From a virus, in IMG/VR virus record IMGVR_UViG_3300039191_000589, positions 1 through 64,000 of that record: a stretch of 64,000 bases of DNA. One strand, given 5' to 3'. A program made the position numbers and the translations under genes. Below are positions 10,781 to 41,144 of the stretch, piece after piece (positions within the stretch are counted from its first letter, which is position 1; every line of letters starts with the position of its first letter). The notes beneath the pieces were generated by a model. It worked only from the letters and a program-made list of their open reading frames with translations, did not search any database and was not told the origin of the DNA.

Positions 10781-11071
10781 ATGGATATTAAAATAAAACA
10801 AAATAATGATAATTATTATTATATAAAAATAATTGTTGAAGAAGGAAATATGATAGAGAATGATTGATTTATAGCTAATTCAATAGGATTAGAATTAAAA
10901 GAATATACTAATATACTAAAAGAAAGATTTAATGCAATTGAACCTTATAAAGAATATCAATTATTTTTTAAAACTAAGATAGATATTAATAGATTTATAG
11001 AGTGGTTAGAAAGGCAATATGTATTACAAAAATTAATTAATACAAATAGTAATACAGATGTTAACATATAA
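10781..11071 (+). pseudogene. Family P gene with an in-frame TGA at 10865-10867 (absent from ORF track); pseudogene or TGA read-through
   Basis: MDIKIKQNNDNYYYIKIIVEEGNMIEND*FIANSIGLELKEY...FFKTKIDINRFIEWLERQYVLQKLINTNSNTDVNI; RBS GGAGGG. Confidence 0.75.
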
Positions 11072-11510
11072 TATAAACAATATATATTACAAGAATCAAT
11101 TAATACAAATAGTAATACAAGTGTTAACATATAACAAATTCCAATTAATAAAATTTTTGTATTATATTATAAAAAATCTATTTACAATTTAATTAAAGTA
11201 TGATATAATATAATAGAAGTTAATAAAAAATATATAAGACCAATTAATATAATGAGCTATTTATTAAAAAGGCGAATTAAACAATATATATTATAAGAAT
11301 TAATTAATACAATTAGTAATACAGATGTTAACATATAATATAAGCAATATATATTACAAAGATTAATTAATACAAATAGTAATACAAGTGTTAACATACA
11401 ATACAAATAATATATATTATAAGAATTAATTAATACAAATAGTAATACAGATGTTAACAAACAGTATATTACAAGAATTAATTAATACAAATAGTAATAC
11501 AGATATTAAC
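11015..11510 (+). repeat. Six copies of a ~57-bp unit, mostly 63-bp period, in two blocks (starts 11015, 11078; 11282, 11345, 11408, 11462)
   Basis: Consensus CAATATATATTACAAGAATTAATTAATACAAATAGTAATACAGATGTTAACATATAA; copy 1 is the 3' end of the 10781 gene. Confidence 0.85.
11181..11209 (+). promoter_or_regulatory. SigmaA-type promoter between the two repeat blocks
   Basis: TTTACA-17-TATAAT with TG. Confidence 0.7.
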
Positions 11511-11575
11511 TCGCCATAATAGATATAAGCTCAATTTAGATATAGGTCTATTTAATTAATATAAGGAGGTAATAT

Positions 11576-11875
11576 ATGAATAATAATAAAGTAACAATTA
11601 AAGTTAAAGAACATAATGGTAACTATTATATTGAATATAGAGAAGATAGTGATTTAACAAATTATGGGATAATAACTCAATGTTTACCAGCAATAGGAGT
11701 AGCTATAAATGAAGATAAAGATAAATTTATTAAAGATATTAATAATAAATTTAATTTAAAAATAGATGAAGATACTCATATTAATTATTTTAATAAAAAG
11801 GAAATTGCTAATAAAATTGCTAATTGGATAAGATCAAAATATATATTAAATAAAATGACTAATAAGGGGAGATAA
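11576..11875 (+). CDS. Family P protein
   Basis: YFNKKEIANKIANWIRSKYILNKM. Confidence 0.8.
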   Translation: MNNNKVTIKVKEHNGNYYIEYREDSDLTNYGIITQCLPAIGVAINEDKDKFIKDINNKFNLKIDEDTHINYFNKKEIANKIANWIRSKYILNKMTNKGR

Positions 11876-11876
11876 T

Positions 11877-12179
11877 ATGGGATCTAATAAGTCTAATAAA
11901 TCTAATAAAAAGATTATAGTAACGAGTGGAAAAAAAGATGGTTTATATTATATTAACATTAAAGGAGTAGGCGGAAAAAGAGAGACCTTTTTAGATCCTA
12001 ATTTAATTTCTATATTATGTGGTATTAAACAAAAAGAGTATAAGAAAATTTTAAATAATAAATTTAATGGAAAACATAAAGAACATAATATATGTTTTAA
12101 TAATAAAGAAAATTATAAACAATTTGCTGATTGGTTAGAATCATTAATAGTAGCTAAAAAAATAAATAAGGAGTGGTAA
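11877..12179 (+). CDS. Family P protein
   Basis: GIKQKEYKKIL..KFNG...FADWLESLIVAKK. Confidence 0.8.
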   Translation: MGSNKSNKSNKKIIVTSGKKDGLYYINIKGVGGKRETFLDPNLISILCGIKQKEYKKILNNKFNGKHKEHNICFNNKENYKQFADWLESLIVAKKINKEW

Positions 12180-12180
12180 T

Positions 12181-12483
12181 ATGGAATACCAAGTAAAACC
12201 TATAAAAATGCAATTATCAACATTTAGATTGAGAAAGAAAGTATATATAATAAAAGGGATTAAGGGAGGTAGTGAGGAAGCAACGTCGGATCATCAATTG
12301 TGTAAATTGGCTGGATTATCAATAAAGGATTATAGGGATTTAGCAATGGATAAATATGGAGCTAATAGAGAAAGAAAGATAGGGATATACTTTGATGATT
12401 ATAAACGGGCTAAAGAATTCGCTAAATGGATTGAAAGGGGAATATTAGCTACAAGATTAAGGGGTAAAGTAATAAAATGGTAA
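12181..12483 (+). CDS. Family P protein
   Basis: IYFDDYKRAKEFAKWIERGILATRL. Confidence 0.8.
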   Translation: MEYQVKPIKMQLSTFRLRKKVYIIKGIKGGSEEATSDHQLCKLAGLSIKDYRDLAMDKYGANRERKIGIYFDDYKRAKEFAKWIERGILATRLRGKVIKW

Positions 12484-12693
12484 TATTACAAAAGCTTTTT
12501 ATATTATAATAATAATTTTTTGTATAATAAAGCCTTTATATTACAATAAATTTTATGATATTTTGCTGAGATTCAACAATAGCATGGAATAGAGAGCTTT
12601 AGAAAGCTCAGAAGCGTCTCGTGCACGGCACTAGTAGTGTACAAGCCCCCTCCATAGAGTAAAAAGTCTAATTAGAGAAAATATAAAAAAATG

Positions 12694-12722
12694 TTTACAT
12701 GATAAACAAAAATTGATATAAT
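12694..12722 (+). promoter_or_regulatory. SigmaA-type promoter
   Basis: TTTACA-17-TATAAT. Confidence 0.7.
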
Positions 12723-12757
12723 ATAATTGTAACAAAATAAATATTAAAAGGGGGGAT

Positions 12758-13208
12758 GTGATGATAAAGCTAATTATATTAGTATATTTGATATTTGTTT
12801 TTTTAAATATTGCTACCTTTTCAATTCCATTAATAAAGAAATATTGTATTGGTTTAACATTAAAAAAAGAATATATATTAGATTTAATATTTGCAATATT
12901 AGTTCCTTTCCCATTAAATCTTAATCTTTGTAATTTTATAATTAGTAGGGTAGATAATTTTGTTTATTTAGATGTATTAAAAAGATTTAATATTAGAAAA
13001 TATTCTTTTTTAGATAAATTAGACAAACATTATAATGATCTTCCGTGGGGAACTATAAGTGAATATCAAAATTTACCTTTTAAAATAGCTAAAAAATATA
13101 AAGATAAAATTAATTGGGAAATATTAATAAAAAATTATAGGGGGCAATAAAGATGAATTAGAAAAAATTGAATCATATTATATATTAAATAAATTAAAGG
13201 GGGAATAA
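12758..13208 (+). CDS. Membrane protein, paralog of the 13528 gene; frameshifted at a G5 run (13140-13144)
   Basis: Track ORF ends at 13150; removing one G restores RGNKDELEKIESYYILNKLKGE*, matching SGNKEELKKIESYYILNKL in the paralog. Confidence 0.7.
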
Positions 13209-13210
13209 TA

Positions 13211-13531
13211 ATGAGTTATAATTTTCAAACTTTTGAAGTAGAAAATTCTAAAAAAAATGAATATAAAATAAAAATGAATAGTTTTGAGGGAAGTCACTTT
13301 TTATATGCTGAGAGTAAAAATAATAGACTTGAAAAAGATGATGAAATAGCAAAAATTTTAAATATGACTTTAGAGGAATATCATCAAAAATTAATTAATG
13401 ATTTTAATGGAGTTAAAAAAGAATGGGGAAATGAAATATTGGTTAATTTTAAAAATAAAGCTAATGCTATGAAAGCAATTGCTTGGGCCCAATCAAGATA
13501 TGTTGGTCTTAAATTAGGTGGTCAAATGTGA
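13211..13531 (+). CDS. Family P protein
   Basis: DDEIAKILNMTLEEY...FKNKANAMKAIAWAQSRY. Confidence 0.8.
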   Translation: MSYNFQTFEVENSKKNEYKIKMNSFEGSHFLYAESKNNRLEKDDEIAKILNMTLEEYHQKLINDFNGVKKEWGNEILVNFKNKANAMKAIAWAQSRYVGLKLGGQM

Positions 13532-14106
13532 TTAAAACATATTGTATAATGATAAGCTTTCTTTATATAGCAGGGATATTGACAACAAATCTTATTTTTT
13601 ATTTAAGAAATAATGAGATAAAAAAAATGTGAGTAATAATGAAAGATAAATATAAAAGAAAAATATTAAAAAAAAGATTTATTCCTTTTCCTCTTAGCAC
13701 ATCTTTTTTAGATGAATTATCAATAACTCAAACTATGATAATGGGGGGAATGTTACATCAATATTATAGTGATGATAAATATAGAAAACAAGTTATTGAA
13801 ATATTAAAAAGATTTAAATTAAAAGATAAATATTTAGGTAATTTTAAATATAAAATAAATTGGAAACAGATATGTAAATATCAAGATCTATCTTTAGCAT
13901 ATGTAAAAAAATATAAAAAATATATATATTGGAAAGTTCTTTTAAAAAATTATAGTGGTAATAAAGAGGAATTAAAAAAGATTGAGTCATATTATATATT
14001 AAATAAATTAAATAATGATATTAATGACGAACCTAATGATGAAGATGAATATATAATTAAATCATTATTAAAAACAGTAGAAAATTTTAAAGTAGGAAGA
14101 TATTAA
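13528..14106 (+). CDS. Membrane protein with in-frame TGA at 13630-13632 (track calls only 13639-14106)
   Basis: GTG 13528 with AGGTGG RBS gives MIKTYCIMISFLYIAGILTTNLIFYLRNNEIKKM*VIMKDKY..., in frame; hydrophobic N-terminus parallels paralog 12758. Confidence 0.65.
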
Positions 14107-14219
14107 TGTATTTCTTCGTATGATTCAAAAAGTGCAGCCATAAATATATTATAATAAATATATAAAAGAGGTGATTTTTTTAACAAAAAATTTAAATTAT
14201 TTTAAAAAGGTTTTATAAT

Positions 14220-14274
14220 TAGATATTAACTCTCCAGGCAAGCTGTCGAGTTAATATCTAGAGCGAAGCTCTAG
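14220..14274. other. Overlapping hairpins including a GCGAAGC mini-hairpin
   Basis: TAGATATTAACTC...GAGTTAATATCTA (13-bp stem) and CTAGAGC-GAA-GCTCTAG. Confidence 0.6.
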
Positions 14275-14311
14275 GTTACAAGTAAGTTGTTACTAAAAAA
14301 TAGTTAAAAGG

Positions 14312-14749
14312 GTGATGTTAATGGAAGTAGATAAGTTAGTAAATAAAATACACAACGGATTAAAGTTTAATAAAATGATAAATATTTCTAAAGATACTAT
14401 AGAAGAAATCTTATTACTAAGAGAAAAAATTATTAACCAAAAGAATATTGATAATTTAATTGATAATAATAAAGATTACTTACATTTATCTCCAAACCAA
14501 ATCTATATTGATTTAGACTTTTCTAATATAAAAAAAGATTTAATAGAACATTATAAAAATGCTGATATTAAAGATTGTAATAGTATAATAACAATTTATT
14601 TAGATAATTTTAAGTTTTCTGTTAATAGTATTGGTGAAATAACTGTTATTGAATATAATATATCTAAAAAAGAGTTATTTAATGAGATTAAAACTATTGA
14701 GTCAATCTTTCAAAAATATTGTAATAATTTTAAAATAAAAGCTAAATAA
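14312..14749 (+). CDS. Hypothetical protein (start may be 14321)
   Basis: Open frame, RBS AGGGTGA. Confidence 0.65.
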   Translation: MMLMEVDKLVNKIHNGLKFNKMINISKDTIEEILLLREKIINQKNIDNLIDNNKDYLHLSPNQIYIDLDFSNIKKDLIEHYKNADIKDCNSIITIYLDNFKFSVNSIGEITVIEYNISKKELFNEIKTIESIFQKYCNNFKIKAK

Positions 14750-14760
14750 AGGAGGTAATT

Positions 14761-15036
14761 ATGAAAGATGTAGATTTTGAGATTGAAAAGAATTGTTCTC
14801 GATATTTAGAAAATTATATAATAATAGGAAAATCATTTAATAAATATTATTATGATAAAGGGACTGCTAAATTATTAAATATTTTTATTGATGATTATAA
14901 AACTATAATGAAAAATAAATTTAATGCTAAATTATCAAGTTATAATCAAGTATTTTTTAAAACTAAAAAAGATGCTAAAAAAGCATTAGAATGGATAGAA
15001 AGTAAATATTTAATAATAAAATTAAAGAGAGGATAA
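14761..15036 (+). CDS. Family P protein
   Basis: KFNAK...FFKTKKDAKKALEWIESKYLIIKL. Confidence 0.8.
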   Translation: MKDVDFEIEKNCSRYLENYIIIGKSFNKYYYDKGTAKLLNIFIDDYKTIMKNKFNAKLSSYNQVFFKTKKDAKKALEWIESKYLIIKLKRG

Positions 15037-15041
15037 TAAAA

Positions 15042-15362
15042 ATGATATATAATGGTGTTGAATTTACTTTAGATGATATTAGTTTTAAAATAGTAAAATA
15101 TGGAGAATTAACAAAAAAACAAAACATTAGATATGGTATTAGAGCTAATATTAGTGAATCATTATCAATTAATGATTATAATATTGTTAAATATTTATTA
15201 GATATGTCGCTTATGGATTATAGGTGGTATCTAGTGGATAATTTTGATGGTCAAGGTGATATACATGGTGATGTATATTTTAGGTGTAAGAGTGATGCCA
15301 GAGATGCTTTAGAATGGGTACAATCTAATTTTATTATAAAAAAATTAAAAAAGGGGAAATAA
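15042..15362 (+). CDS. Family P protein
   Basis: YFRCKSDARDALEWVQSNFIIKKL. Confidence 0.8.
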   Translation: MIYNGVEFTLDDISFKIVKYGELTKKQNIRYGIRANISESLSINDYNIVKYLLDMSLMDYRWYLVDNFDGQGDIHGDVYFRCKSDARDALEWVQSNFIIKKLKKGK

Positions 15363-15364
15363 AA

Positions 15365-15691
15365 ATGAAAAAAATTTTAATATTTTCATGTATTATATTA
15401 TTATTATCTCCAATATGTGTAGCTAAGGAAAATACTTCAAATTTTATTCTTGTTAATTTAGATGGTACTTATATTAAAATTACCCCACAAAATTTACATT
15501 ATATTGGTATTTATGGATCTAAAAATGATTATTACATAATGTTAAAAATTCTTTATTATAATACTAGAAATAATCAACAATATATGAAATATTGTAGTAA
15601 AAAATTTAAAAATAAATATGAAGCTGAAAGTCGTTTGCAAATTATTATTAATAAAATTAATAAAGCATTTAATACAACAATAATTAAATAA
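15365..15691 (+). CDS. Exported protein with predicted signal peptide
   Basis: MKK + hydrophobic stretch + CVA; partial FKNKYEA motif. Confidence 0.7.
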   Translation: MKKILIFSCIILLLSPICVAKENTSNFILVNLDGTYIKITPQNLHYIGIYGSKNDYYIMLKILYYNTRNNQQYMKYCSKKFKNKYEAESRLQIIINKINKAFNTTIIK

Positions 15692-15705
15692 AAAGGAGGG
15701 GTTAC

Positions 15706-15957
15706 ATGAAGTTTAATGTTATTTTAAAAGAGAAAAATTATAATTATGAAGTAAAATTAGATATTGATAAAGAAGCATTTAAAGTGTTAGATTATATTGA
15801 TCAAGAATATGGAATTTCATTTGGGGAAGTTTTTATGGAAAAATTTTCTTGTGGTTGGGATGATGGTAGTTTTATTTTTCAAAATAAAGAAAAAGCTCAA
15901 AAAGCAAAACAATGGTTAGAAAATCAAGCAATGATATTTAAGATGGTTGATAAGTAA
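15706..15957 (+). CDS. Family P protein
   Basis: FQNKEKAQKAKQWLENQAMIFKM. Confidence 0.8.
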   Translation: MKFNVILKEKNYNYEVKLDIDKEAFKVLDYIDQEYGISFGEVFMEKFSCGWDDGSFIFQNKEKAQKAKQWLENQAMIFKMVDK

Positions 15958-15976
15958 AAAAAGGGGGGAATTAATA

Positions 15977-16243
15977 TTGGATTATTATATACTTGGTAAA
16001 GATGAATATGGTTATAGAGTTATGATAAATTATAAATATGAGGATTATAAAATTATTCATATAATTCAAGATTGTTTTTGGTCAAGAAAATATAAACAAT
16101 ATTGTATGGATGAATTAAATGCTAAAATTAAAAAAAGAGAAAATGGAAGAAAAGTAATTTATTTTAATAATGAAAAACAAGTAAAAAAAGCTAAAGAATG
16201 GTTGGAATCACAAGTATTAATGAAAAAAATGAGAATAAAATAA
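15977..16243 (+). CDS. Family P protein
   Basis: YFNNEKQVKKAKEWLESQVLMKKM; TTG 15977 after AAGGGGGG. Confidence 0.75.
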   Translation: MDYYILGKDEYGYRVMINYKYEDYKIIHIIQDCFWSRKYKQYCMDELNAKIKKRENGRKVIYFNNEKQVKKAKEWLESQVLMKKMRIK

Positions 16244-16260
16244 AAGGAGAAGAATAAATT

Positions 16261-16536
16261 GTGAATTATAAAAATTGTTATATTATAACTAAAAGTAATA
16301 AAGGATTTTTAATTTTAATAAAAAATGAATTTTTATATCATAAACATGTACGTATTTTAATTAATATACTTCAATCGAAACAATATAAAAAATATTGTAT
16401 AAATGAATTAAATGCTATTAGTAAAATAGTTGATCCTGATTTTGATAAAAAAAGAATTTATTTTAAAACTAAAAAACATGCTATAAAAGCTAAGGAATGG
16501 TTAGAGTCAAAATTAATGATAGAATTAATGAGGTGA
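16261..16536 (+). CDS. Family P protein
   Basis: YFKTKKHAIKAKEWLESKLM. Confidence 0.8.
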   Translation: MNYKNCYIITKSNKGFLILIKNEFLYHKHVRILINILQSKQYKKYCINELNAISKIVDPDFDKKRIYFKTKKHAIKAKEWLESKLMIELMR

Positions 16537-16540
16537 TATA

Positions 16541-16843
16541 ATGAAAATTGGAGGGATTTCAGTTAAGTTAAATGAAATAAAAATAATATGTCAAGAGGTA
16601 GATAATAATATTTATGCTTTAAATATTTTATTAAATGATAAATATTGTGCTGATTTTGATTTAGCTATAATGAAAAGAATATTAGGTATATCGAAAAAAG
16701 AATTAAGTAATATTATTAAGGGACGTTTTAATGGTAAACAAAAGTATAAATATAGTAATATATACTTTAATACTAAAGAGGATGCCCAGGGTGCACGTGA
16801 ATGGTTTAGATCACAATTATTAATGAAACAACTAGGGAGGTAG
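16541..16843 (+). CDS. Family P protein
   Basis: YFNTKEDAQGAREWFRSQLLMKQL. Confidence 0.8.
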   Translation: MKIGGISVKLNEIKIICQEVDNNIYALNILLNDKYCADFDLAIMKRILGISKKELSNIIKGRFNGKQKYKYSNIYFNTKEDAQGAREWFRSQLLMKQLGR

Positions 16844-16850
16844 TAATAAT

Positions 16851-17114
16851 ATGAATAAATATGAAATTGAATATATAAAAAATTATTCTTCTGGTCATTA
16901 TTTTGTATGTTTAGAAAAAAGCAATGTTAAAGGTAAAAGATTTTTTCCATATGAAATTTGTGATATTTCTAAAAAGGAATATAGAAAAATATTAAAAGAA
17001 GAATTTAATGCTGTAAAGTGGGGAGGTCTTATGGCTTTTAAAAATAAGAATGATGCCAAAGAAATTGAAGATTGGTTAGATTCTTTATTATTGGCCAAAA
17101 CAATGGAGGGGTAA
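16851..17114 (+). CDS. Family P protein
   Basis: FKNKNDAKEIEDWLDSLLLAK. Confidence 0.8.
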   Translation: MNKYEIEYIKNYSSGHYFVCLEKSNVKGKRFFPYEICDISKKEYRKILKEEFNAVKWGGLMAFKNKNDAKEIEDWLDSLLLAKTMEG

Positions 17115-17115
17115 A

Positions 17116-17403
17116 ATGGAACAATATTATACTATTCATTATAACCAATCTAAAAAAGGCTATACTCTTTTAATAAAAGGAGATAATATTAGTCAATATA
17201 GGGATTTACATAAAACACTTAGATCAAAAAGGTATCATAAATATGCTATAGATAAATTAAATGGTAAATTAATTACAATTAAAAAAGATCATGATATAAC
17301 AATAGATAGAATATACTTTAAAACTAAAAAAAATGCTAAAGAGGCTATAAAGTGGTTAAATTCATTATTATTATCATTAAAATTAGGAGGTAATGAGAAT
17401 TAA
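17116..17403 (+). CDS. Family P protein
   Basis: YFKTKKNAKEAIKWLNSLLLSLKL. Confidence 0.8.
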   Translation: MEQYYTIHYNQSKKGYTLLIKGDNISQYRDLHKTLRSKRYHKYAIDKLNGKLITIKKDHDITIDRIYFKTKKNAKEAIKWLNSLLLSLKLGGNEN

Positions 17404-17689
17404 AGTTATTATTTTTAATAAAAGTGGTAATAGAGCATTAATAATAAAAAATGCCCCAGGAAATTATTGTGTAACTGATAAACAAGTTGCTCATCAATTA
17501 ACAATAACTACAAAAGAATATCAACAAAAATTATTAAATGATTATAATGGTATTTTAGAAAATGAATTTTGGGTATCTAATAGTACTAATGTTATTTTTA
17601 AAACTGAAGAAGATGCTATAAAAGCAAAAGAGTGGTTAGAAAGTCAAGCAATAATAAGTAAAATGGGGGAAAATAATGGAATCATATAA
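17393..17689 (+). CDS. Family P protein
   Basis: FKTEEDAIKAKEWLESQAIISKM. Confidence 0.8.
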   Translation: MRIKVIIFNKSGNRALIIKNAPGNYCVTDKQVAHQLTITTKEYQQKLLNDYNGILENEFWVSNSTNVIFKTEEDAIKAKEWLESQAIISKMGENNGII

Positions 17690-17993
17690 AAATTCTTATG
17701 AGGTTATGATTGAACCAATTAATAATAAATATAGAATTTGTATAGCAGAATGGGGAGATAAATTTCCTAGTGGAGCTAAGGGTGGCCCTTTACATTTAGG
17801 AATGGATTTATATTTTTTATTAAATATTAAATCTAATATTATTTATAATAAATTAATAAAAGAACTTGATGGTAAAGAAACTAATGACGATAATATAATA
17901 TTTCCATCAAGAAAAAAAGCTCAACAAGCTAAAATATGGGTTGAAGCTCAATTGATTCTTACAAAATTAGGTGATACAAATGATAAAATATAA
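17676..17993 (+). CDS. Family P protein
   Basis: FPSRKKAQQAKIWVEAQLILTKL. Confidence 0.8.
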   Translation: MESYKNSYEVMIEPINNKYRICIAEWGDKFPSGAKGGPLHLGMDLYFLLNIKSNIIYNKLIKELDGKETNDDNIIFPSRKKAQQAKIWVEAQLILTKLGDTNDKI

Positions 17994-18300
17994 TTATAAT
18001 ATAAGAATAATAGGGGGAAGCCATTTAGAATATGAAATAATTATAGAAGAAATAAGAGAATTAAAATATAAAGATCTTAATAATAATGATAAAATTAAAA
18101 GAAAGAAACAAAAATTTCCTCCTTGGAGTTTTTATAATATTTTAAATATTAGTGAAGATAAATATAAACATAAAATAAAACAAAAGGGTTTTGTTAGTAG
18201 AGGGCCTATGGATACTATGGAATTTATTGATAAAAAAGATGCTATAAAAGTAAAAAAATTATTAGAATCATTATTATTAATGAATAAAATAGAGGAGTGA
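17980..18300 (+). CDS. Family P protein
   Basis: FIDKKDAIKVKKLLESLLLMNKI; ATG 17980 after AGGTGA. Confidence 0.75.
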   Translation: MIKYNYNIRIIGGSHLEYEIIIEEIRELKYKDLNNNDKIKRKKQKFPPWSFYNILNISEDKYKHKIKQKGFVSRGPMDTMEFIDKKDAIKVKKLLESLLLMNKIEE

Positions 18301-18539
18301 AAATAATGGAAAATGACTTTGATTTAAAAGATATTTATAATATTGTAATTGAACCTGAACATTCTAAAAATACCTTAAAAAAAATAATGAAAAATAAAAA
18401 TTTAGATTTAATTACTACTTTAAACATTTTAATTACAAAAGATTATAATAAATTTAATATATCTAAAGAAGAATATAAAGAGCTTAAACATTATTTTTTA
18501 ATTTTTATTAATAGTGAAGGTAATTTAAATAAATTATAA
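18297..18539 (+). CDS. Hypothetical protein (start may be 18306)
   Basis: Open frame in operon, RBS GAGGAG. Confidence 0.6.
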   Translation: MKIMENDFDLKDIYNIVIEPEHSKNTLKKIMKNKNLDLITTLNILITKDYNKFNISKEEYKELKHYFLIFINSEGNLNKL

Positions 18540-18555
18540 AAAAGATGGTGATAAT

Positions 18556-18816
18556 ATGTGTGAATATAAAATTATTAAGCAAGATAATAGATATTATATT
18601 ACATTTGATGATATAGAATATGTTGTAGATAGTGGGGCATTAGCTCAAACTTTAGGTATGAAAAATGATAAGTTACATAAAATTGCTTGTAATAAATATA
18701 GTGCTATTAAAGAATGGGAATATGCTTTTTATTTTAAAAAACAAAAAGATGCTCAACAAGCTTTAGAATGGATTAGATCAGTATATATAAGTAATCAATT
18801 AAAACAAAGTCAATAA
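18556..18816 (+). CDS. Family P protein
   Basis: YFKKQKDAQQALEWIRSVYISNQL. Confidence 0.8.
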   Translation: MCEYKIIKQDNRYYITFDDIEYVVDSGALAQTLGMKNDKLHKIACNKYSAIKEWEYAFYFKKQKDAQQALEWIRSVYISNQLKQSQ

Positions 18817-18843
18817 TTTTTTTTAAAAAACTATAAAAAACTA

Positions 18844-18961
18844 TTTACAAAGTTATAATAATGTTATATAATATAAATTGTAGTAAAGAAAACATCTCTC
18901 AAGAAAAATTTTAATTTTTTACAAAAAAACTGTTTACATTTTAAATGAGAGATGATATAAT
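18844..18961 (+). promoter_or_regulatory. Tandem sigmaA-type promoters upstream of the AAA ATPase operon
   Basis: TTTACA-17-TATAAT at 18844-18872 and 18933-18961. Confidence 0.7.
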
Positions 18962-19006
18962 ATAATTAACAAATAAATAAATGAAAAGGAAGGGGGATTT
19001 ATTATA

Positions 19007-20446: not shown

Positions 20447-20481
20447 AAATATATTTATAAAAAATAAAGGAGGAATAAAAA

Positions 20482-20838: not shown

Positions 20839-20854
20839 AAAGTGAGGGATTAAA

Positions 20855-21250: not shown

Positions 21251-21254
21251 TCTA

Positions 21255-30564: not shown

Positions 30565-30574
30565 GTGATTAATA

Positions 30575-31030
30575 ATTAAAAGGCTTATAAGAGAATCAAA
30601 AAAAGTAACCACTTATCATGGTACTTCAACTGATAATAAAGATAGTATTTTACAAGATGGATTAAGTTCAACACCAGGTGGATTTGGAAAAGGGGCTTAT
30701 ACAACCACTGATTATGATGAAGCATGTAAATATGCTATTAAAGCAGCAGCAGAGCATATTGAAGATCAATTATATGATAATGTTAATGATTATCCTGAAC
30801 CAATTGTTTTTGAAATTGAAATTGATGATAAAAAAGCTGAATCAATTTATACATCATATTATATTTCTGAAGATGGAATTGATCCTAGTCAAATTGTAAA
30901 ATATGAAAATATATCTAATGACTCACGGTGGGAAAAATTAATAAAATTGTTTAATAAATTTTTAAAAAATGAATTAGATAATGAATGGGAATTTTGGGAA
31001 TATGCCTCAAAAATGTCTAATATTATTTAG
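30575..31030 (+). CDS. ADP-ribosyltransferase-like (H-G-T/PARP/Tpt1-type) protein with KRLIRES leader; ATT start; not in ORF track
   Basis: AGGTGA RBS 6 nt before ATT; 151 codons: (M)KRLIRESKKVTTYHGTSTDNKDSILQDGL...GFGKGAYTTTDYDEACKYA...PIVFEIEI...GIDPSQI; TAG followed by terminator. Confidence 0.75.
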   Translation: MKRLIRESKKVTTYHGTSTDNKDSILQDGLSSTPGGFGKGAYTTTDYDEACKYAIKAAAEHIEDQLYDNVNDYPEPIVFEIEIDDKKAESIYTSYYISEDGIDPSQIVKYENISNDSRWEKLIKLFNKFLKNELDNEWEFWEYASKMSNII

Positions 31031-31054: not shown

Positions 31055-31136
31055 ATTTTATTGAAAATATTGTTAAAAAATGTTTATTATTTGAATTATA
31101 TTTATATAGGAATTATATAGCATTGGAGGTTTTATA

Positions 31137-32393: not shown

Positions 32394-32455
32394 ATAATAA
32401 ATATAATTATAAACATTTTATTATTTTTTATATATCTTATGGAAGGAGTATAAAA

Positions 32456-32599
32456 ATGAAAAAAAATGAAGTAAAAAGAATATTAGAAAAGAAAAATAAA
32501 TATGATAAAAAAAATAATATTCCTGAAAATAATGCTCCAACTACTAGTAATAAATATTTTGTTGAATTAGTTTCTTATATATTACAGGAGGTTGATTAA
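32456..32599 (+). CDS. Small hypothetical protein (47 aa, not in track)
   Basis: RBS AAGGAG, ATG 32456, stop just before the exonuclease ATG. Confidence 0.55.
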   Translation: MKKNEVKRILEKKNKYDKKNNIPENNAPTTSNKYFVELVSYILQEVD

Positions 32600-32600
32600 T

Positions 32601-33506
32601 ATGTCTAGTAAATTTTTAATTGTTGATGGTAATTCTTTATCTTGTAGAGCAGCTTTTGCCCATAATCCAAATTGGGGACCTGATTTGCATACCTCAAATG
32701 GGAGAAAAACAGGGGCAACATATAGATTTATTAATATGTTTGATAGTCTTTTAAGAAAAGTAAGACCTACTCATATTATTGTAGGGTGGGATGTTAGTAG
32801 TGAAACATTTCGTAAATCATTAGATGAAAATTATAAAGCTAATCGTAAACAATATGACAAAGATTTATATGAACAATTTAAAGATATTAAATCTATTTTA
32901 GAAGCAATTGGTATTCATAATGTTGGTATAAGGGGTTATGAAGCTGATGATGTTTTAGGTACTTATGCAGAAAAATCTAAAGCACATAAAACTTTTATTG
33001 CTAGTGGTGATAAAGATATTTTTCAACTAGTTGATGGTAGCACTACTGTTTTATATCCTAAAAGTGGGTTTAGTAAAATGAAATTAGTTACACCTGAATA
33101 TATTATAAACGAATATGATATAGATCCTAGAAAATTTATTGATTTAAAAATGTTAATGGGTGATAATTCAGATAATATTCCTGGAATTAAAGGTTGCGGA
33201 CCAAAAACTGCTAAAAAGTTATTAAATTATTATAAAAATGCTGAGGAAGTAGCTGATAATGCTGAAACCATTGACGAAATAAAAGGAGTTACTAAAACAG
33301 CTAAAAAAGGTGCCATAGAATGGAAAAAAGATTTTGAAAAAATTAAGAAATTAGTTACTATTAGAAAAGATGTTGATGTTCCATATGATTTTGAAGAATG
33401 TAGAGTTAATTATGATTGGGATAATGCTAAAAATATTTTTGAAAAATTAGAATTTAAAAAACACCTTAATAAATTAAAGAAAGGTGGATTTTATGGCCAA
33501 AGGTAA
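32601..33506 (+). CDS. 5'-3' exonuclease / flap endonuclease (PolI N-terminal or T4 RNase H type)
   Basis: LIVDGNSL, FRK...YKANR, EADD, SGDKD..QL, GDNSDNIPGIKGCGPKTA (H3TH). Confidence 0.92.
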   Translation: MSSKFLIVDGNSLSCRAAFAHNPNWGPDLHTSNGRKTGATYRFINMFDSLLRKVRPTHIIVGWDVSSETFRKSLDENYKANRKQYDKDLYEQFKDIKSILEAIGIHNVGIRGYEADDVLGTYAEKSKAHKTFIASGDKDIFQLVDGSTTVLYPKSGFSKMKLVTPEYIINEYDIDPRKFIDLKMLMGDNSDNIPGIKGCGPKTAKKLLNYYKNAEEVADNAETIDEIKGVTKTAKKGAIEWKKDFEKIKKLVTIRKDVDVPYDFEECRVNYDWDNAKNIFEKLEFKKHLNKLKKGGFYGQR

Positions 33507-34092
33507 ATTATTTAATGAATCAAAAATTGTTAATTCTCAATCAAAACAACAAAAAAGTAAAATTGATAAAAATAAAAAAAATGATAAACCTAAAAATGAT
33601 TTAAATAATAAATCTAAAGATAATAATGATAATAATAACAATGATAATAATGAGTCTAAAAATAAAGACTTAAAAGAAAAAGAATATAAAGATAAAATTG
33701 ATATTAATATTGATAAAAATAAAAAAAGACCTAAAAAAAATAATTCATATTTAAATACTGTTGAAGATTTTAAAAAAAATCAACAAAATAAATCAAATAA
33801 AATAAATAATAATGATAATAATCAAAATACTAATAAAGATGTTATTAATAAAGAAAAAAATAAAACTACAAATAAAAAAAATAATTCATTAAAACAAAAT
33901 AGAATAGAAAAGATGGTTAATAATGAAAAAAATAAAATAAATGATTTAGAAATAGAAATTCAATTACATTTAAAATTAATAAAAGATACAGGTGATAGAT
34001 CAAAGAAGGAATTATACCAAACTAAAATTGATAGATTCAGAGAAGATTTAGAATATCATAAAAAGAGATTGTATTTTTTAGAAAAAATGTAA
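33493..34092 (+). CDS. Low-complexity N/K-rich protein with C-terminal coiled coil
   Basis: ATG 33493 after AGGTGG. Confidence 0.65.
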   Translation: MAKGKLFNESKIVNSQSKQQKSKIDKNKKNDKPKNDLNNKSKDNNDNNNNDNNESKNKDLKEKEYKDKIDINIDKNKKRPKKNNSYLNTVEDFKKNQQNKSNKINNNDNNQNTNKDVINKEKNKTTNKKNNSLKQNRIEKMVNNEKNKINDLEIEIQLHLKLIKDTGDRSKKELYQTKIDRFREDLEYHKKRLYFLEKM

Positions 34093-34101
34093 TTATTTAA
34101 T

Positions 34102-34128
34102 ACTCAGAGCAATTGCTCTGAGTTTTTT
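34102..34128 (+). terminator. Rho-independent terminator
   Basis: ACTCAGAGC/GCTCTGAGT stem followed by T tract. Confidence 0.75.
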
Positions 34129-34190
34129 ATTATATAAAAGAATATTTTTTTTATTAGTATAATAGAAATATAATAAAGAGGTGTTAATAT

Positions 34191-34886
34191 ATGGCTGAAG
34201 GTAAGGTACATAAACATTTAAAACAAGTTGCGTTAAGATGGCTTAAATTTAAAGTAACTGATCTTGTAGGAGCCGAAGTAAAATTCCATAATGCTTATTC
34301 AGTGGCTGATGCGGCAGGAGTAAATTTAAAAAGAAAAGAAGTTAGAATAATTGAGGTTAAATCATCAAAAGCAGATTTAAAAAGAGATGATAAATTATTT
34401 AAAAAACCAACTTCCTATTACTATCATGCTCATTATTCATATATCATGTGTCCTGAAGGGGTATTGGATAAAAATGATATACCTAAATATTTTGGTTTAT
34501 TATATGTTGATGATTATGATAATGTTGAAGTTATTAAAAATCCAACAAAAAATAAAGGTAGATTAAAAACATATTTTAAAACAACTTTAAGAAGAACTGC
34601 AAGAGCTTTAACTAATGATAAAATATTTAGTAAAGAAAACATTGAATCATATGATAGAACAAATGGCCACTATAAACGAAAGGCTAAATTATGGTTAATT
34701 AGAACTCGTTGTCCTGATTGTAAGAAACATCCAAAAATATTAATTCATGAAGATAATACTAATATTGTAGAATGTCCTAAATGTGGTACTGAAATAGACT
34801 TAGATAAAGCTAAAGTTAATAAAGTGAGTGGTTATAATAAAAAATTTATTAAACAAGCTAATAATCTAATAGATGGTGATAATTAA
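34191..34886 (+). CDS. MmcB-like PD-(D/E)xK nuclease with C-terminal zinc ribbon
   Basis: E...VADA...IIEVKSSKADLKRD.K...Y...YIMCP...IP..FGLL; CPDC...CPKC. Confidence 0.7.
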   Translation: MAEGKVHKHLKQVALRWLKFKVTDLVGAEVKFHNAYSVADAAGVNLKRKEVRIIEVKSSKADLKRDDKLFKKPTSYYYHAHYSYIMCPEGVLDKNDIPKYFGLLYVDDYDNVEVIKNPTKNKGRLKTYFKTTLRRTARALTNDKIFSKENIESYDRTNGHYKRKAKLWLIRTRCPDCKKHPKILIHEDNTNIVECPKCGTEIDLDKAKVNKVSGYNKKFIKQANNLIDGDN

Positions 34887-35311
34887 TGAAAAGATTAATA
34901 AAAAAAGCATCAAATGTATGGGTTGGAGAACCTGAAGTAAGGTTAGATGAAGGTCCATCAGGATGGGAAGCAGGAGCTTATGATGTTACATGTATGAAAC
35001 AAGGGGAAATAAAAATAGATGCTCTTAAGGGTATTCCTGGGGCTAATGGAGAGAATCGACAATGGCATAAACGTGATGGAAAAGAATATTTTGGTAATTA
35101 TTCAAAAGAAGAATGGGAAGAATTTAAAAATGATTTAGAACAAAATGGAATGAAATATCCTATTTTTATTACAGTTGATAAAGATGGCACTATTTTAATG
35201 AGTGAAGGAAATCATAGAATGGAAGCGGCTAAACAATTAGAATGGGATTCAGTTCCTGTTGAAATTAAATATTTTGGAAATTCCCAACAAGATGTTCATA
35301 AATTTGATTAA
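34886..35311 (+). CDS. ParB/Srx-like domain protein with MKRLIKKA leader
   Basis: DLEQNGMKYPI...EGNHRMEAAKQL...VPV; paralog of 41156. Confidence 0.75.
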   Translation: MKRLIKKASNVWVGEPEVRLDEGPSGWEAGAYDVTCMKQGEIKIDALKGIPGANGENRQWHKRDGKEYFGNYSKEEWEEFKNDLEQNGMKYPIFITVDKDGTILMSEGNHRMEAAKQLEWDSVPVEIKYFGNSQQDVHKFD

Positions 35312-35325
35312 GGAGGAAATTAGTA

Positions 35326-35820
35326 ATGAATAAACTAAAACAATTACAAGATACTATTAAACATAAAAATAATGTTATTGAGATTGGTACTCAATTATCA
35401 CAAAAATTAATGCAGATAGGACATGAAAAATTGTCATTAAAATTATTAGAAAGAATTTATAATCATGACAATACTAAATTTTCAAATCGAGAATTTTATG
35501 GATTAGCAGACAATGTTCATGATAAAAGATCATTAAAAAATGTTAATGAAGATCAAATTGCTAAAGAAGAAAAGATGAAATTCATTAAATTTCATTGGTT
35601 TTCTAATAAACACCATCCAGAATATTATAGTGATGTTAATGATATGAAATTATTAGATATTTTAGAAATGTGTTGTGATTGGTATGCGCGAAGTAAAGAA
35701 TTTGATAATGATCCAATAGAATTTTTTAATAAAAAACAAGGTACTCGATGGAATTTTAATAAGGAAATGCAAGAAACAATAATAAAACATTTAAGAGCTT
35801 TAAAATCTTTAGATAAGTAA
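35326..35820 (+). CDS. DUF5662-like (HD-related) protein
   Basis: HK...HD.TKFS..E...H...NKHHPEYY...M...DILEM.CDW.ARS. Confidence 0.7.
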   Translation: MNKLKQLQDTIKHKNNVIEIGTQLSQKLMQIGHEKLSLKLLERIYNHDNTKFSNREFYGLADNVHDKRSLKNVNEDQIAKEEKMKFIKFHWFSNKHHPEYYSDVNDMKLLDILEMCCDWYARSKEFDNDPIEFFNKKQGTRWNFNKEMQETIIKHLRALKSLDK

Positions 35821-35865
35821 TTTTTTTAAAAGGGTGAAAACCCTTTTATTTTTTTTAAAAAATTA

Positions 35866-35894
35866 TTTACTTTTTTTGTTATGTATGATATAAT
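35866..35894 (+). promoter_or_regulatory. SigmaA-type promoter (early-type island within the later region)
   Basis: TTTACT-17-TATAAT with TG; preceded by hairpin at 35828-35847. Confidence 0.6.
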
Positions 35895-35926
35895 ATTAAT
35901 GTAACAAAATAAAAGGAGGTAGATAA

Positions 35927-36202
35927 GTGAATAAATATAATGTTACAGTTAATAATGATTATGATATTGGTTATTATATTGTTATAGAAGATAATAATAG
36001 TGTTAAAGCATGTTATGATAATGAAATAGCTAGTTTATTAAATATATCTATTGATAAATACAAAAAAGAGTTAAAAAAATTTAATTATATAAGTAATAAT
36101 GGAGAATCTTATTTTAAAAATAAAAAAGATGCTTTAAATGCATCAAAACGAATTCAGGATATATTAATAATGAGTATATTAACTGTATCTGAAAGGAGTT
36201 AA
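35927..36202 (+). CDS. Family P protein (isolated copy)
   Basis: DNEIASLLNISIDKY...YFKNKKDALNASKRIQDIL; RBS GGAGGTAGATAA-GTG as in early cassettes. Confidence 0.8.
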   Translation: MNKYNVTVNNDYDIGYYIVIEDNNSVKACYDNEIASLLNISIDKYKKELKKFNYISNNGESYFKNKKDALNASKRIQDILIMSILTVSERS

Positions 36203-36207
36203 TAATT

Positions 36208-36942
36208 ATGATAGCAGAAAAATTAAGAAAATTTCAACGTCAAGAACTAATAAAAAAAATAGAAGATGAAATAAAAGATCATATAGCTTACAATAATTCA
36301 AAAATTCCAAGACATAAACAGCGTATAGAATTTTTTGATGAAAAAGTTAATATATATAAAAATATATTATTAGAAAATAAATCTGTTGAAGATGTTTATA
36401 ATTTTGTTAAAGATTTTTCCCATAAAAAAAATTTTAAAAATATAATTTTAAAAAAAATTAAACAGGATTATTTTAAAAAAGCTACTAAGGAAGATTATAT
36501 AAAATGGTTAAATGGTTATTTAGAAGATCAAAATAATGATCCTACTAAATATTTTCATTATGATTTTAATGCGGATAACCATATAGATCCAACCTTTTAT
36601 ATAGCTACAAAAGATATACCTATTTTATGTTTTTATGGAGTAGGACAATTTAACCTTATAGTACCTAAAGGAATTAACGTTGAAACTAAATATGGAACTG
36701 GGCATTGTAATTTATATTTTATGGGAGATTATCAAAATGTTGGAGATGTTCCAATATATAAAGATATTATAGAAGATATAGAAGAAAAAGAAAAATCTGG
36801 ATTAGATAAAATATCCAATAATAAAAAAAGAAAAATATTTATGTTACATAATAACAAAGAAAATAAAAATATTGATAATTCTTGGTTACATTTTATATCA
36901 AAAATACCTTTTATAAAAAAATATATTAAAAAGAGAGAATAA
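36208..36942 (+). CDS. Hypothetical protein containing NKKRKIFML near the C-terminus
   Basis: Open frame, RBS AAGGAG. Confidence 0.7.
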   Translation: MIAEKLRKFQRQELIKKIEDEIKDHIAYNNSKIPRHKQRIEFFDEKVNIYKNILLENKSVEDVYNFVKDFSHKKNFKNIILKKIKQDYFKKATKEDYIKWLNGYLEDQNNDPTKYFHYDFNADNHIDPTFYIATKDIPILCFYGVGQFNLIVPKGINVETKYGTGHCNLYFMGDYQNVGDVPIYKDIIEDIEEKEKSGLDKISNNKKRKIFMLHNNKENKNIDNSWLHFISKIPFIKKYIKKRE

Positions 36943-36969
36943 TTTTATTAATAGGAAGGGGTAAATAAT

Positions 36970-37698
36970 ATGCGTGTAATAGTAGCAGGGACAAGATCTT
37001 TTAATGATTATAATTTATTAAAAAAAGTATTGAATAATAAATTAAAAAAATATAATGATCTTACAATCTTATGTGGCTGTGCTCAAGGGGCAGATACATT
37101 AGGTAAAAGATGGACTAAAGAAAATGGATATAAAGTTGAAGAATATCCAGCAAAATGGGATGATTTTGGTAAAAAAGCTGGTTATATAAGAAATGAAAAG
37201 ATGGCAAAAAATGCAGATGCTTTAATTGCTTTTTGGGATGAAAAATCAAAAGGTACAAAGCATATGATTAATTTTGCTACAGAATATAATTTAAATATTA
37301 AAGTAATTAAATATAAAAATAAATCAAAAATTTATCTTTCAAGTCTATCTAAATCTAAAAACTTACCAGATAATGTAATTAAATTATTTATTGCTAGGCA
37401 ACCTATTAAAAATATGGGTAAATATGATTTAAAACATGTTACTGAATTAGCCCCTTCAAAAGAATTATTATATGATTATAAAGGGGATAAAATTACTTGG
37501 AAAGAATATGTTGATTTATATCGTGAAGAAATGAGATCAATAAATGCTAGAAAAATGTTAAATAAAATTATTGATTATTTAGATATGTGTAATGATATTG
37601 CTTTAATTTGCTATTGTGGTAGTTCTTCTAATTGTCATCGTAATATAGTAGGAAATTATTTTAAAGAGATAGGTAAAGAAGTTATTAATTTTGAATGA
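36970..37698 (+). CDS. SLOG (YspA/DUF2493-like) domain fused to a DUF488-like domain
   Basis: MRVIVAGTRSFNDY...G.A.GAD.LG...PAKWD..GKKAG.IRN..MA..ADALIAFWD..SKGT.HM; then LAPSKEL...W..Y...Y..EM...LICYC....CHR. Confidence 0.8.
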   Translation: MRVIVAGTRSFNDYNLLKKVLNNKLKKYNDLTILCGCAQGADTLGKRWTKENGYKVEEYPAKWDDFGKKAGYIRNEKMAKNADALIAFWDEKSKGTKHMINFATEYNLNIKVIKYKNKSKIYLSSLSKSKNLPDNVIKLFIARQPIKNMGKYDLKHVTELAPSKELLYDYKGDKITWKEYVDLYREEMRSINARKMLNKIIDYLDMCNDIALICYCGSSSNCHRNIVGNYFKEIGKEVINFE

Positions 37699-37722
37699 TA
37701 TTTCTAAGAAAGGAGGGTAAAA

Positions 37723-38565
37723 ATGATAGAAAAAGAATTGGGAAAAGAGATAAGTATTAAATATGAATATGAAAATATTGAATCAATATTAAATAATTTA
37801 AAACAAGAATTAAATAAAATAAATTATAATATTCAAGAAGTTAATAATAAAATAAAAAGAATAATTAATTCTGAAAAATATATAGCGGCATTATTTTATT
37901 TATTAATTGATTATAAATCTCTTTTTAATAAATTTAAGGATGATATAATTAAAGCATGTCATAATAACCCCCTTAGTGCAGTTCAAATTCTTAGCGAATA
38001 TCAAATTATAAATTTAGATGTACTAATTAATATTAATAAAGATGAATTACAATTATTACAATCTACAGATAATTATAAAAATATTATAAAAAAATATAGA
38101 ACAAAATTAATCCATATTATATCTCAAGATCCTGAATGTGCTTATAAATTTATTAGAGAATGTAAAGATAATGTTGAAAGACAATGTTTATTAAACTCAA
38201 TTTTAAAATCAGATACGTATTCTTTTAAGCTTAGAAAATTATTATTAATTAATTTAGATAGCCATAAAAAACAACAATTAACTACTATATGTTGTGGTAA
38301 TGATTATTATATTATGAAATTAATTGAAGCCCATAGGTATTCTTATATTAAATTAAATAATATTGAAAAATGGATTATTATTGATCGTATAATAGAATTG
38401 CAAGATAATAAATTAGCTGAAATAGCATATCATAAAGGTAATTTAGATTTATCACAGGAATTAAAAGAAAAATTAGAACCATTATTAATTATGAATAAAT
38501 TAAATAAAACTAAAAAAAATAAAGAAAAATTTATTAATTATAAAATAAAATTTATTAATTTTTAA
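37723..38565 (+). CDS. Helical hypothetical protein with family-type tail (EPLLIMNKL)
   Basis: RBS AGGAGGG. Confidence 0.7.
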   Translation: MIEKELGKEISIKYEYENIESILNNLKQELNKINYNIQEVNNKIKRIINSEKYIAALFYLLIDYKSLFNKFKDDIIKACHNNPLSAVQILSEYQIINLDVLININKDELQLLQSTDNYKNIIKKYRTKLIHIISQDPECAYKFIRECKDNVERQCLLNSILKSDTYSFKLRKLLLINLDSHKKQQLTTICCGNDYYIMKLIEAHRYSYIKLNNIEKWIIIDRIIELQDNKLAEIAYHKGNLDLSQELKEKLEPLLIMNKLNKTKKNKEKFINYKIKFINF

Positions 38566-38570
38566 ATAAA

Positions 38571-38597
38571 AAAAAGGAAGAGAATCTTCTCTTCCTT
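38571..38597. terminator. Probable bidirectional terminator between convergent genes
   Basis: AAGGAAGAGAA/TTCTCTTCCTT stem. Confidence 0.7.
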
Positions 38598-39036
38598 AAT
38601 CTATTATTCTTAAATGTTGATTATTTTTTACCATTGTTTCATGAATATCTTCTAACCATTGCTCCCATTTATCATTTTCCTGCCATGCAGTAATAGAATT
38701 ATTTTCTAATCCTGATTTTATATCAATTATATTTTTTGGTTTAATTTTTTTTGGGTATAAAAAATCATATCCATTAATACATTTTATACATTTGCTTTGT
38801 TTTACTTTAACTGTTAAAATAGAAATTTTATTATTATGCAACCATCCTCCATATTCTATTGCTTTCTCAATGTTATTTGTTAAAAATATTACTCCATTGT
38901 GGTCTGGCCAACATTCTTTAGGTATATCATTATTATACCTAGAATTATAAGATGGAATCAATCCTTTCTTTAAAATTGAATTAATATTATAATCTGGGGT
39001 GCCATGATAAAGAATTTTAGTGTTATTGTTACTCAT
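38596..39036 (-). CDS. ADP-ribosyltransferase/Tpt1-like (H-G-T) domain protein
   Basis: LYHGT....NSILKKGL.P...VIFLT.....A.EY...ILTV...I.PKNI; RBS AGGAGGG on - strand. Confidence 0.7.
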   Translation of the reverse strand: MSNNNTKILYHGTPDYNINSILKKGLIPSYNSRYNNDIPKECWPDHNGVIFLTNNIEKAIEYGGWLHNNKISILTVKVKQSKCIKCINGYDFLYPKKIKPKNIIDIKSGLENNSITAWQENDKWEQWLEDIHETMVKNNQHLRIID

Positions 39037-39159
39037 ATAAATCCCTCCTAATATATTGTTAATATATTATATTCGACTATTATTAAAATATTACTTTAAA
39101 AAATAAAAAAATTCTTTTTATAATATATATATAATAAATAATACAGGGGGTTTACTTAT

Positions 39160-39837
39160 ATGATAGGTAAATTAATTACAATAGAAGGTATTGATGGATC
39201 TGGTAAAAAAACCCAAACTAATCTAATAAAACAATATTTAGAATCTAAAGGAAAAAAAGTTAAAGTTATTGAGTTTCCTAGGTATAAAACTGAAGTAGGT
39301 AAAGTTATAGCTAATTATTTAAAAGGTGATTATGGAAAATTAAATGAAGTACCTAATGAATTGATTTGTATTGCATATGCTTCAGATAGGGCAGGAATGT
39401 CTAGTAAAATTAGAAGATTACTTAATGATGGTTATTATGTAATTGCTGATAGGTATACATATTCTAATTTATTTACAGCTGCAAAATTACCTAAAGATCA
39501 ACAATATAATTTTATAAAATGGATTGAAAAAATGGAATTTAAGAGTTTAAATATAGTAAAACCTGATTATAATTTTTATTTATATCTTGATCCTGAAATA
39601 GCTTATAAAAGAATAAATCAAAGAGGTAAACGTGATTATCAAGATGGAAAGGATGATATTCATGAACAAGATATTAACTTTTTATCTGATGTCACTGAAT
39701 GTTATTTCAATATTGCTAAAGATAATCCAAAATGGAATATTATTAATCAAATACAAAATAATAAACAATTATCAAAAAACCAAATTTTTAATAAAATAAA
39801 AAAACATTTAGATAAAATAATTAAAGAAGGTGAATAA
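39160..39837 (+). CDS. tmk: Thymidylate (dTMP) kinase
   Basis: ITIEGIDGSGK.TQ P-loop, EFPRY, A.DR, VIADRY..S, PD..FYL, D.HE. Confidence 0.9.
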   Translation: MIGKLITIEGIDGSGKKTQTNLIKQYLESKGKKVKVIEFPRYKTEVGKVIANYLKGDYGKLNEVPNELICIAYASDRAGMSSKIRRLLNDGYYVIADRYTYSNLFTAAKLPKDQQYNFIKWIEKMEFKSLNIVKPDYNFYLYLDPEIAYKRINQRGKRDYQDGKDDIHEQDINFLSDVTECYFNIAKDNPKWNIINQIQNNKQLSKNQIFNKIKKHLDKIIKEGE

Positions 39838-40238
39838 TGATGTTTTTAGAAATAATTTATCAAATGTTTCATTGGGCATGTAAAATGATTTTTATTATAA
39901 GTTTTTTAAGTGTATTATATGAATTAATGTACCCTGTTAAAGAAGAAGGAGTAATAGAATTAACTAAAGATGGAAATCAATATAAAGTTTGTTTTATGGA
40001 AATAAGGTGGGATAAAAAATTGCAAAAAGTACCATTATTAATATTAGGGGATAAATCTTTAAATGTTACTTTTATTAAATTTCCAACTTTACATCCCGTA
40101 ATAAAAGAACAACATAAATATAAAATTTTAAATAAAAATGAATATACTGTTATTAAAAGGTTTCCTGATCAAATTAATGAAAACATAAAAGCATTATTTT
40201 TTATATCAGCCATTTCAGGATTATTATTAATATTTTAA
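39837..40238 (+). CDS. Membrane protein
   Basis: Hydrophobic N- and C-terminal segments. Confidence 0.65.
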   Translation: MMFLEIIYQMFHWACKMIFIISFLSVLYELMYPVKEEGVIELTKDGNQYKVCFMEIRWDKKLQKVPLLILGDKSLNVTFIKFPTLHPVIKEQHKYKILNKNEYTVIKRFPDQINENIKALFFISAISGLLLIF

Positions 40239-40262
40239 AGCCACTTTAAGGTGGCTTTTTTT
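40238..40262 (+). terminator. Rho-independent terminator
   Basis: AAGCCAC/GTGGCTT stem followed by T tract. Confidence 0.75.
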
Positions 40263-40325
40263 ATTTTTAATTATAATTATATTTTATAAGGATATTTAAT
40301 TAATAAAGATTATAGGAGTGATTTA

Positions 40326-41144
40326 ATGAAAAGGTTAATAAAAAAGTCAAAACATGGTATTGAAAATAGAGATGAAGCATTAACTTACATAGATGGAGAA
40401 ATATATACTGGCCCTAACCATCCTAGGATGATTGATGAATTTTTAAAAGAAAACAAAAAACAAGGGAGAAAAATAATAGAAGATTTTATAGGCAATTTCG
40501 GTCTTGATGATGAAGAAGCTCAAATACTATTAGATAAATTTGAAGATTTAGGAAGAGTTCCATCAAATGTATTATCAGCTTATAATGAATTTGAAAGATC
40601 ATCTGATTATTATCAAGAATTAGGTGATGTTCCATTAGGATTTGGACATATTGTAGAAGATGATAATGCGATATATATTGAAAAAGATTCAATTCAAAAT
40701 GTTGATTTTAATACTATAATTAATGAAATAAAAAATAATTATCCTGATTATAATGTTTATGATGATAGTAGTTATTCTAATTATGGTGGTACTCCTGAAG
40801 ATTATACTAAAGTTGCCAGCAAACAATTAATAAAACAAGCTGCTTATGTATATTGTCGTAATTGTAATTGGAGCCAAGATGATTTTTGGAGTGAATCATA
40901 TAATCCATTGAGGTATTTATTAAATTGAGAAGATATGTTATTAAATGAAGATTTAGAAGAGCAATTTACAGATGATTGTAATTTTATTGATCAATATGGA
41001 AATTTAAGTAAAAAAGAAGTAATTATAAAAGAATTAAATGATGCTATTAATAAAATTAAAAAAATGGAATATAAAAATGAAAAACAATTAAAAAAGAATG
41101 ATAATAGATGCCCACAATGTGGAGAAAAATTAACTAGAGATTAA
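40326..41144 (+). CDS. MKRLIKKS-leader two-module protein with in-frame TGA at 40926-40928 (track splits it into 40326-40928 and 40935-41144)
   Basis: Module 1 paralogous to 43629 gene; module 2 CRNCNWSQDDFW...YNPLRYLLN*EDMLL...CPQCG has CxxC pairs on both sides of the TGA; 40935 ATG is in frame with no clear RBS. Confidence 0.65.

Follow-up and report, generated by a model that had tools for sequence, protein, structure and literature searches.

Nonsense-interrupted genes and pseudogenes have been described in prokaryotic genomes (Belinky et al. 2021, PMC7918605), with TGA as the leakiest stop and a UGA readthrough of ~6% in wild-type B. subtilis, as cited in the same paper. A second group of systems is formed by recoded phages, in which TGA is read as Trp (code 4) or TAG as Gln (code 15); in the published model, phage recoding begins with a low GC (guanine plus cytosine) content and rare TGA and TAG stops, and a suppressor tRNA is acquired afterwards (Borges et al., bioRxiv 10.1101/2021.08.26.457843). 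Here we analyzed three in-frame TGA codons in the first 64 kb (the window) of the 110,097-bp viral record IMGVR_UViG_3300039191_000589, which covers an estimated 26% of the genome of a phage G-like megaphage. A sequence-only reading of the window had offered two options for these codons, either TGA read-through or incipient recoding to Trp, or independent TGG>TGA nonsense mutations. Our analysis gave no support to a recoding of TGA in this phage, which otherwise probably uses the standard code. We consider it rather probable that the TGA codons are ordinary premature stops that arose by single-base substitutions. The second option fits better than the first, since TGG is the normal Trp codon of the contig, TGA is a working terminator and coding density does not increase under code 4.

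As in the cases of Belinky et al. (PMC7918605), single in-frame stops of all three kinds were found in otherwise intact genes; unlike those cases, the genes lie in a megaphage fragment, with four or five of them in 110 kb. The locus shares with recoded phages a large low-GC phage genome, termination dominated by TAA, a host that is probably a standard-code Firmicute, and a TGA at a Trp position. However, in recoded phages one kind of stop occurs in frame many times, mainly in the structural and lysis genes, whereas the contig contains three TGA, one TAG and one TAA. Gene calls of recoded phages are fragmented under code 11, in contrast to the contig, where no coding density is lost and only three in-frame TGA codons occur in ~152 genes. 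Recoded phages also often carry a matching suppressor tRNA, while no tRNA is present on the contig and TGA is still used as a stop.

The positions 10865, 13630 and 40926 each hold a TGA in frame, as the sequence-only reading had described, and none of the three frames shows a further defect. The interrupted genes, the TGA codons and the paralogs used for comparison are as follows (window coordinates; asterisk, stop codon):

10781..11071, + strand, family P paralog of 96 codons starting at ATG 10781 and interrupted at codon 29; reads ...IEND*FIAN...
10865..10867, + strand, in-frame TGA, site 1; the aligned column is variable among paralogs
12758..13150, + strand, uninterrupted paralog of the site-2 gene, with a fused hydrophobic N-terminus and a PFPL motif
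13528..14106, + strand, site-2 region; either one gene (192 codons with readthrough) or a 34-codon membrane-peptide open reading frame (ORF) followed by a 155-aa gene from ATG 13639
13630..13632, + strand, in-frame TGA, site 2; ambiguous, since the gene may truly end here; context ATGTGAGTAATAATG
40326..41144, + strand, gene of 272 codons interrupted at codon 201; MKRLIKKS leader, N-domain and CxxC...CxxC Zn module
40926..40928, + strand, in-frame TGA, site 3; falls mid-helix in the Zn module, at a Trp position
43629..44483, + strand, paralog of the site-3 N-terminal domain; 49% identity to the site-3 N-domain

The site-1 gene belongs to a family with more than 20 members in a paralog array, and 22 of these paralogs were aligned. 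The ORF matches the paralog at 10497-10775 with 40% identity (E 2e-17) over residues 1-85, and this alignment crosses the stop. The column occupied by the TGA holds K in four, Y in four, L, R and S in two each and W in one of the other 21 paralogs, with other residues in the remainder; the nearest paralog has Leu (TTA). The 67 codons 3' of the TGA contain no ATG, GTG or TTG. Tandem arrays of a 63-bp repeat, at 11015-11134 (~2 copies) and 11278-11510 (~4 copies), occupy the stretch without genes that follows the site-1 gene and overlap the 3' end of that gene, and each repeat unit carries a promoter-like TTAACA-16-TATATT.

The site-3 gene has 200 codons 5' of its TGA and 71 codons 3' of it. A full HMMER search with the last 108 residues of this gene, which cover the Zn module, returned 171 outside homologs, all of which align across the stop. 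The majority stand alone, with a length of ~100 aa; one of them, P0002 (263 aa), is fused. The column of the stop holds W in 36 of 81 homologs, the four closest among them, and Cys in only 3. The AlphaFold model at site 3 is one compact domain (predicted local distance difference test, pLDDT, 92.3), in which the stop is residue 37, inside helix 30-43. Judged by the alignments that run across the stop, to a paralog and to outside homologs respectively, sites 1 and 3 are certainly genuine interruptions. The same alignments indicate that site 3 most likely originated from TGG by a single G-to-A change. Among the three TGA sites, the alignments support a Trp ancestry at site 3 only; the column at site 1 is variable. 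At least 171 proteins make up the family of the Zn module (CxxC-NWSQDDFW...CPxCG, 40818-41141), for which there is no Pfam model, and a fold search against the PDB gave no significant match. The leader tag also occurs outside this phage, as P0002, which was not found in IMG/VR, likewise starts with MKRLIKKS.

Site 2 is ambiguous. GTG 13528, which overlaps the TGA of the upstream gene, is preceded by an AGGTGG Shine-Dalgarno (SD) site and opens 34 codons with a hydrophobic segment, followed by the TGA and then by 157 open codons. ATG 13639 lies two codons past the TGA and has an SD-like GTGA, and the context of the codon is similar to that of true TGA stops overlapping an SD site. Significant similarity between the site-2 gene and its paralog at 12758 is confined to the C-terminal part, and searches for homologs and paralogs returned no informative homolog covering the TGA. 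Because ATG 13639 lies close by with its SD-like GTGA and the similarity is limited to the C-terminal part, it is possible that this TGA is a natural boundary between two genes.

The whole contig was scanned for single stops between two long open segments. The sequence-only reading had seen no internal TAA or TAG, and had named such stops, if as common genome-wide, as a finding that would refute its interpretation. Its observation stands within the window, where the scan detected no in-frame stop besides the three TGA; outside the window, in the same genome, TAG 102934 and TAA 104512 of the contig are in frame, and by that measure they speak against recoding. A single adhesin-like gene of ~1,430 codons (contig 101371-105669), with beta-helix, Kelch and WD40-like propeller domains, contains both of them and holds 2 of the 5 stops in ~4.5% of codons. 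TAG 102934 aligns to the W of the paralog at 97307 (LSLGWENKGTG vs TSDG*QNTGTG), with strong identity on both sides, and TAA 104512 splits a 40-residue propeller blade repeat, YIYVGS*YEFMIYNKSDYS. Neither downstream piece has an SD site or a start codon. Conserved domains with in-frame homology on both sides are thus interrupted at site 1, site 3, TAG 102934 and TAA 104512, and the alignments support a Trp ancestry at two of the stops, TGA 40926 and TAG 102934.

Codon counts, coding density and RNA genes were used to examine whether TGA has changed its meaning. TGG accounts for 329 of 32,217 codons (1.0%), which gives a ratio of TGG to in-frame TGA of 329 to 3. The sequence-only reading had described true TGA stops as a minority that often overlap an SD site, and this was borne out: TGA ends 12-13 of 152 genes, TAA makes up 82% of stops, and in 7-8 of the TGA-ended genes the TGA lies inside the SD site of the next gene, with an ATG 4-5 nt later. 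The backup stops that it had reported near TGA are present as well, but they are not specific to TGA. The median distance to the next in-frame stop is 5 codons for TGA, 5 for TAA and 2 for TAG, so backup stops were rejected as a sign of leaky TGA and are attributed to base composition. Re-calling the contig with code 4 brought no gain, with a coding density of 0.892 under code 11 and 0.892 under code 4. On the contig, which represents ~26% of the genome, ARAGORN and Rfam RF00005 detected no tRNA, including the suggested tRNA with a UCA anticodon, and no RF-1 or other release-factor domain was found. The RNA folds predicted for the 70 nt after each of the five stops did not exceed shuffled controls in stability (z -0.9 to +1.4).

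Genome-wide reassignment of TGA, to Trp as in code 4 or to Gly as in code 25, or insertion of selenocysteine at these codons, is extremely improbable in the light of these results. Trp is the aligned residue at site 3, and the likely host group (Peptostreptococcales/Tissierellales relatives) is rich in selenoproteins; these two points speak for such a reading. Nevertheless, the excess of TGG over in-frame TGA, the genes that TGA terminates and the identical density under code 4 stand against reassignment. No SECIS-like (selenocysteine insertion sequence) hairpin follows any TGA in comparison to shuffled controls, the residues found in homologs are W, L, Y and D with Cys in only 3 of 81, and neither reassignment nor selenocysteine would explain the TAG and TAA interruptions. 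Coding density and codon counts led us to reject code 4, code 25 and other reassignments of stops, and the lack of structure 3' of the stops to reject selenocysteine or structure-stimulated readthrough. For annotators, this means that code 11 should be applied to the contig and four or five interrupted genes flagged, which guards against a false alternative-code call.

The most economical explanation is that four or five independent nonsense substitutions (2-3 TGA, 1 TAG and 1 TAA), for the most part changes of TGG into TGA or TAG, occurred in accessory or multi-copy genes of this 110-kb fragment. The interrupted genes are a member of the array of more than 20 paralogs, a leader-tagged Zn-module protein with paralogs, and an adhesin-like fibre gene with a paralog. 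A mutation model built from the codon usage of the genome predicts that TGA should form 22-26% of nonsense codons, and the probability of at least three TGA among five stops is 0.07-0.12. The excess of TGA is not significant, and its share falls to 2 of 4 should a gene really end at site 2. The presence of two stops in one gene is what relaxed selection after the first hit would produce.

An ATG occurs within 4 codons 3' of 3 of the 5 stops, in comparison to 6.5% expected (P ~0.003, post hoc). This enrichment makes sense only if the stops terminate translation and survival depends on restart. We infer that the stops truly terminate translation, with restart or leak softening the effect. Translation would mostly end at these stops, so that the products would be truncated or split. 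The natural leakiness of UGA, with near-cognate tRNA-Trp reading the codon, may yield some full-length protein, and a restart at an ATG 2-3 codons past the stop may allow the parts 3' of it to be translated. If the enrichment holds in more genomes, it would mean that nonsense mutations survive best where restart is possible, and restart-dependent survival would be one route to gene fission.

Several observations weigh against independent nonsense substitutions. The segments downstream of the five stops, of 67, 157, 71, 525 and 384 codons, are all without secondary defects, so the events must be very recent or tolerated. Five nonsense codons stand beside no clear random frameshifts, a balance that is unusual for plain decay. 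As the contig covers only ~26% of the genome, a suppressor tRNA could lie elsewhere, and 11-17 tRNAs are encoded by relatives with complete genomes. Bacillus phage G (Donellivirus gee) encodes at 411932-412006 a tRNA with the anticodon UUA (ochre-suppressor type), adjoining a tmRNA (PMC12484599), and also has a tRNA-Trp; the relative G002 encodes a tRNA-Trp with the anticodon CCA. The collections searched contained no close relative by which the mutations could be dated, with the best outside homolog being 52% identical. Word-index protein searches for relatives sharing the sites returned only the contig's own products, and tblastn of the phage collection returned nothing.

The same observations bear on a reading in which the stops are tolerated, an early 'detoxified stop' stage, which has been proposed as an intermediate of stop-codon recoding in low-GC phages. 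Suppressor tRNAs encoded on the unseen part of the genome would read the stops often enough to keep the genes working, which we regard as unlikely. In its most far-reaching form, which appears decidedly unlikely, this would be the earliest such stage, at which accessory, cargo and fibre genes can already retain nonsense codons of several kinds while every stop still serves as a terminator. The 24.7% GC content and the dominance of TAA are the precondition in the model of Borges et al. (bioRxiv 10.1101/2021.08.26.457843), and the tRNAs of phage G and G002, the small fraction of the genome seen and five substitution-type stops without random indels or secondary damage downstream fit such a stage. 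However, the 110 kb yielded no suppressor tRNA, and all three kinds of stop are hit, including TAA, which was not reported as recoded in the phages surveyed by Borges et al. A conserved Trp is lost at the TAG, but the TAG suppressors known from phages insert Gln. Two of the stops cluster in a single gene, readthrough would not predict the excess of ATG codons immediately 3' of the stops, and three related contigs (329 kb) contain no comparable interrupted genes. Should the remainder of the genome turn out to encode a suppressor tRNA, the contig would capture, as few sequences do, the proposed intermediate between phages with the standard code and recoded ones.

An artefact was considered as well, namely that the stops are consensus errors or minority alleles of a mixed metagenome population whose dominant phage has sense codons. 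The record is an uncultivated viral contig, and all five changes could be G:C to A:T transitions, which is supported for TGA 40926 and TAG 102934 and assumed for the other three. The only frame breaks on the contig lie at two A9 runs (49480-49488 and 56095-56103), where the reading frame changes between adjacent ORFs; these breaks could be due to slippage or homopolymer error. Nevertheless, the contig is otherwise clean, with ~150 intact genes with strong SD sites, and random errors that produced five stops would imply hundreds of errors. No motif shared by the five stop sites was seen by eye, whether of methylation type or one that would indicate a systematic miscall. An artefact is therefore quite improbable. 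The contig has 43 A8 runs and only four A9 runs, with none longer.

The contig has a GC content of 24.7%, nearly all of its genes are on the + strand, and the completeness of the record by CheckV is 26%. The large terminase (41959-43611) shares ~61% protein identity with Bacillus phage G and with uncultivated contigs of 280-500 kb; the Zn module of the site-3 gene was not found in these terminase relatives. For gp1-gp3, nucleotide identity to phage G is ~66%. Unlike phage G, the contig combines low GC with a Clostridia-type insertion sequence and represents about a quarter of a genome. The element is:

1473-3132, + strand, intact IS4-family insertion sequence (Pfam DDE_Tnp_1_4, E 7e-153) with perfect 15-bp terminal inverted repeats

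Its transposase shares 81% protein identity with a copy in a Bacillota metagenome-assembled genome, and 72-74% with those of Fusibacter, Acidaminobacter and Tissierella. The element gives a hint of the host and shows that it has resided in a Bacillota cell. As its relatives belong to Clostridia and other Bacillota, a host using the standard code is indicated, and the host class is likely Clostridia with code 11. A C5 cytosine methylase gene (239-1387, minus strand) adjoins the IS4-family element in this megaphage fragment.

General decay by frameshifts was also considered and rejected. The apparent case at 44458 turned out to be a separate small gene, and those at 30569, 72450 and 72811 are genes with a strong SD site and a non-canonical start. 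The latter correspond to long protein-like frames without a nearby ATG, GTG or TTG, located at 30569-31030 in the window and at 72450-72791 and 72811-73155 of the contig. Two of these frames directly follow a strong AGGTGA or AGGAGGTGA site, which is then followed by TTA ATA AT(T/A), and this suggests ATA, ATT or TTA as start codons.

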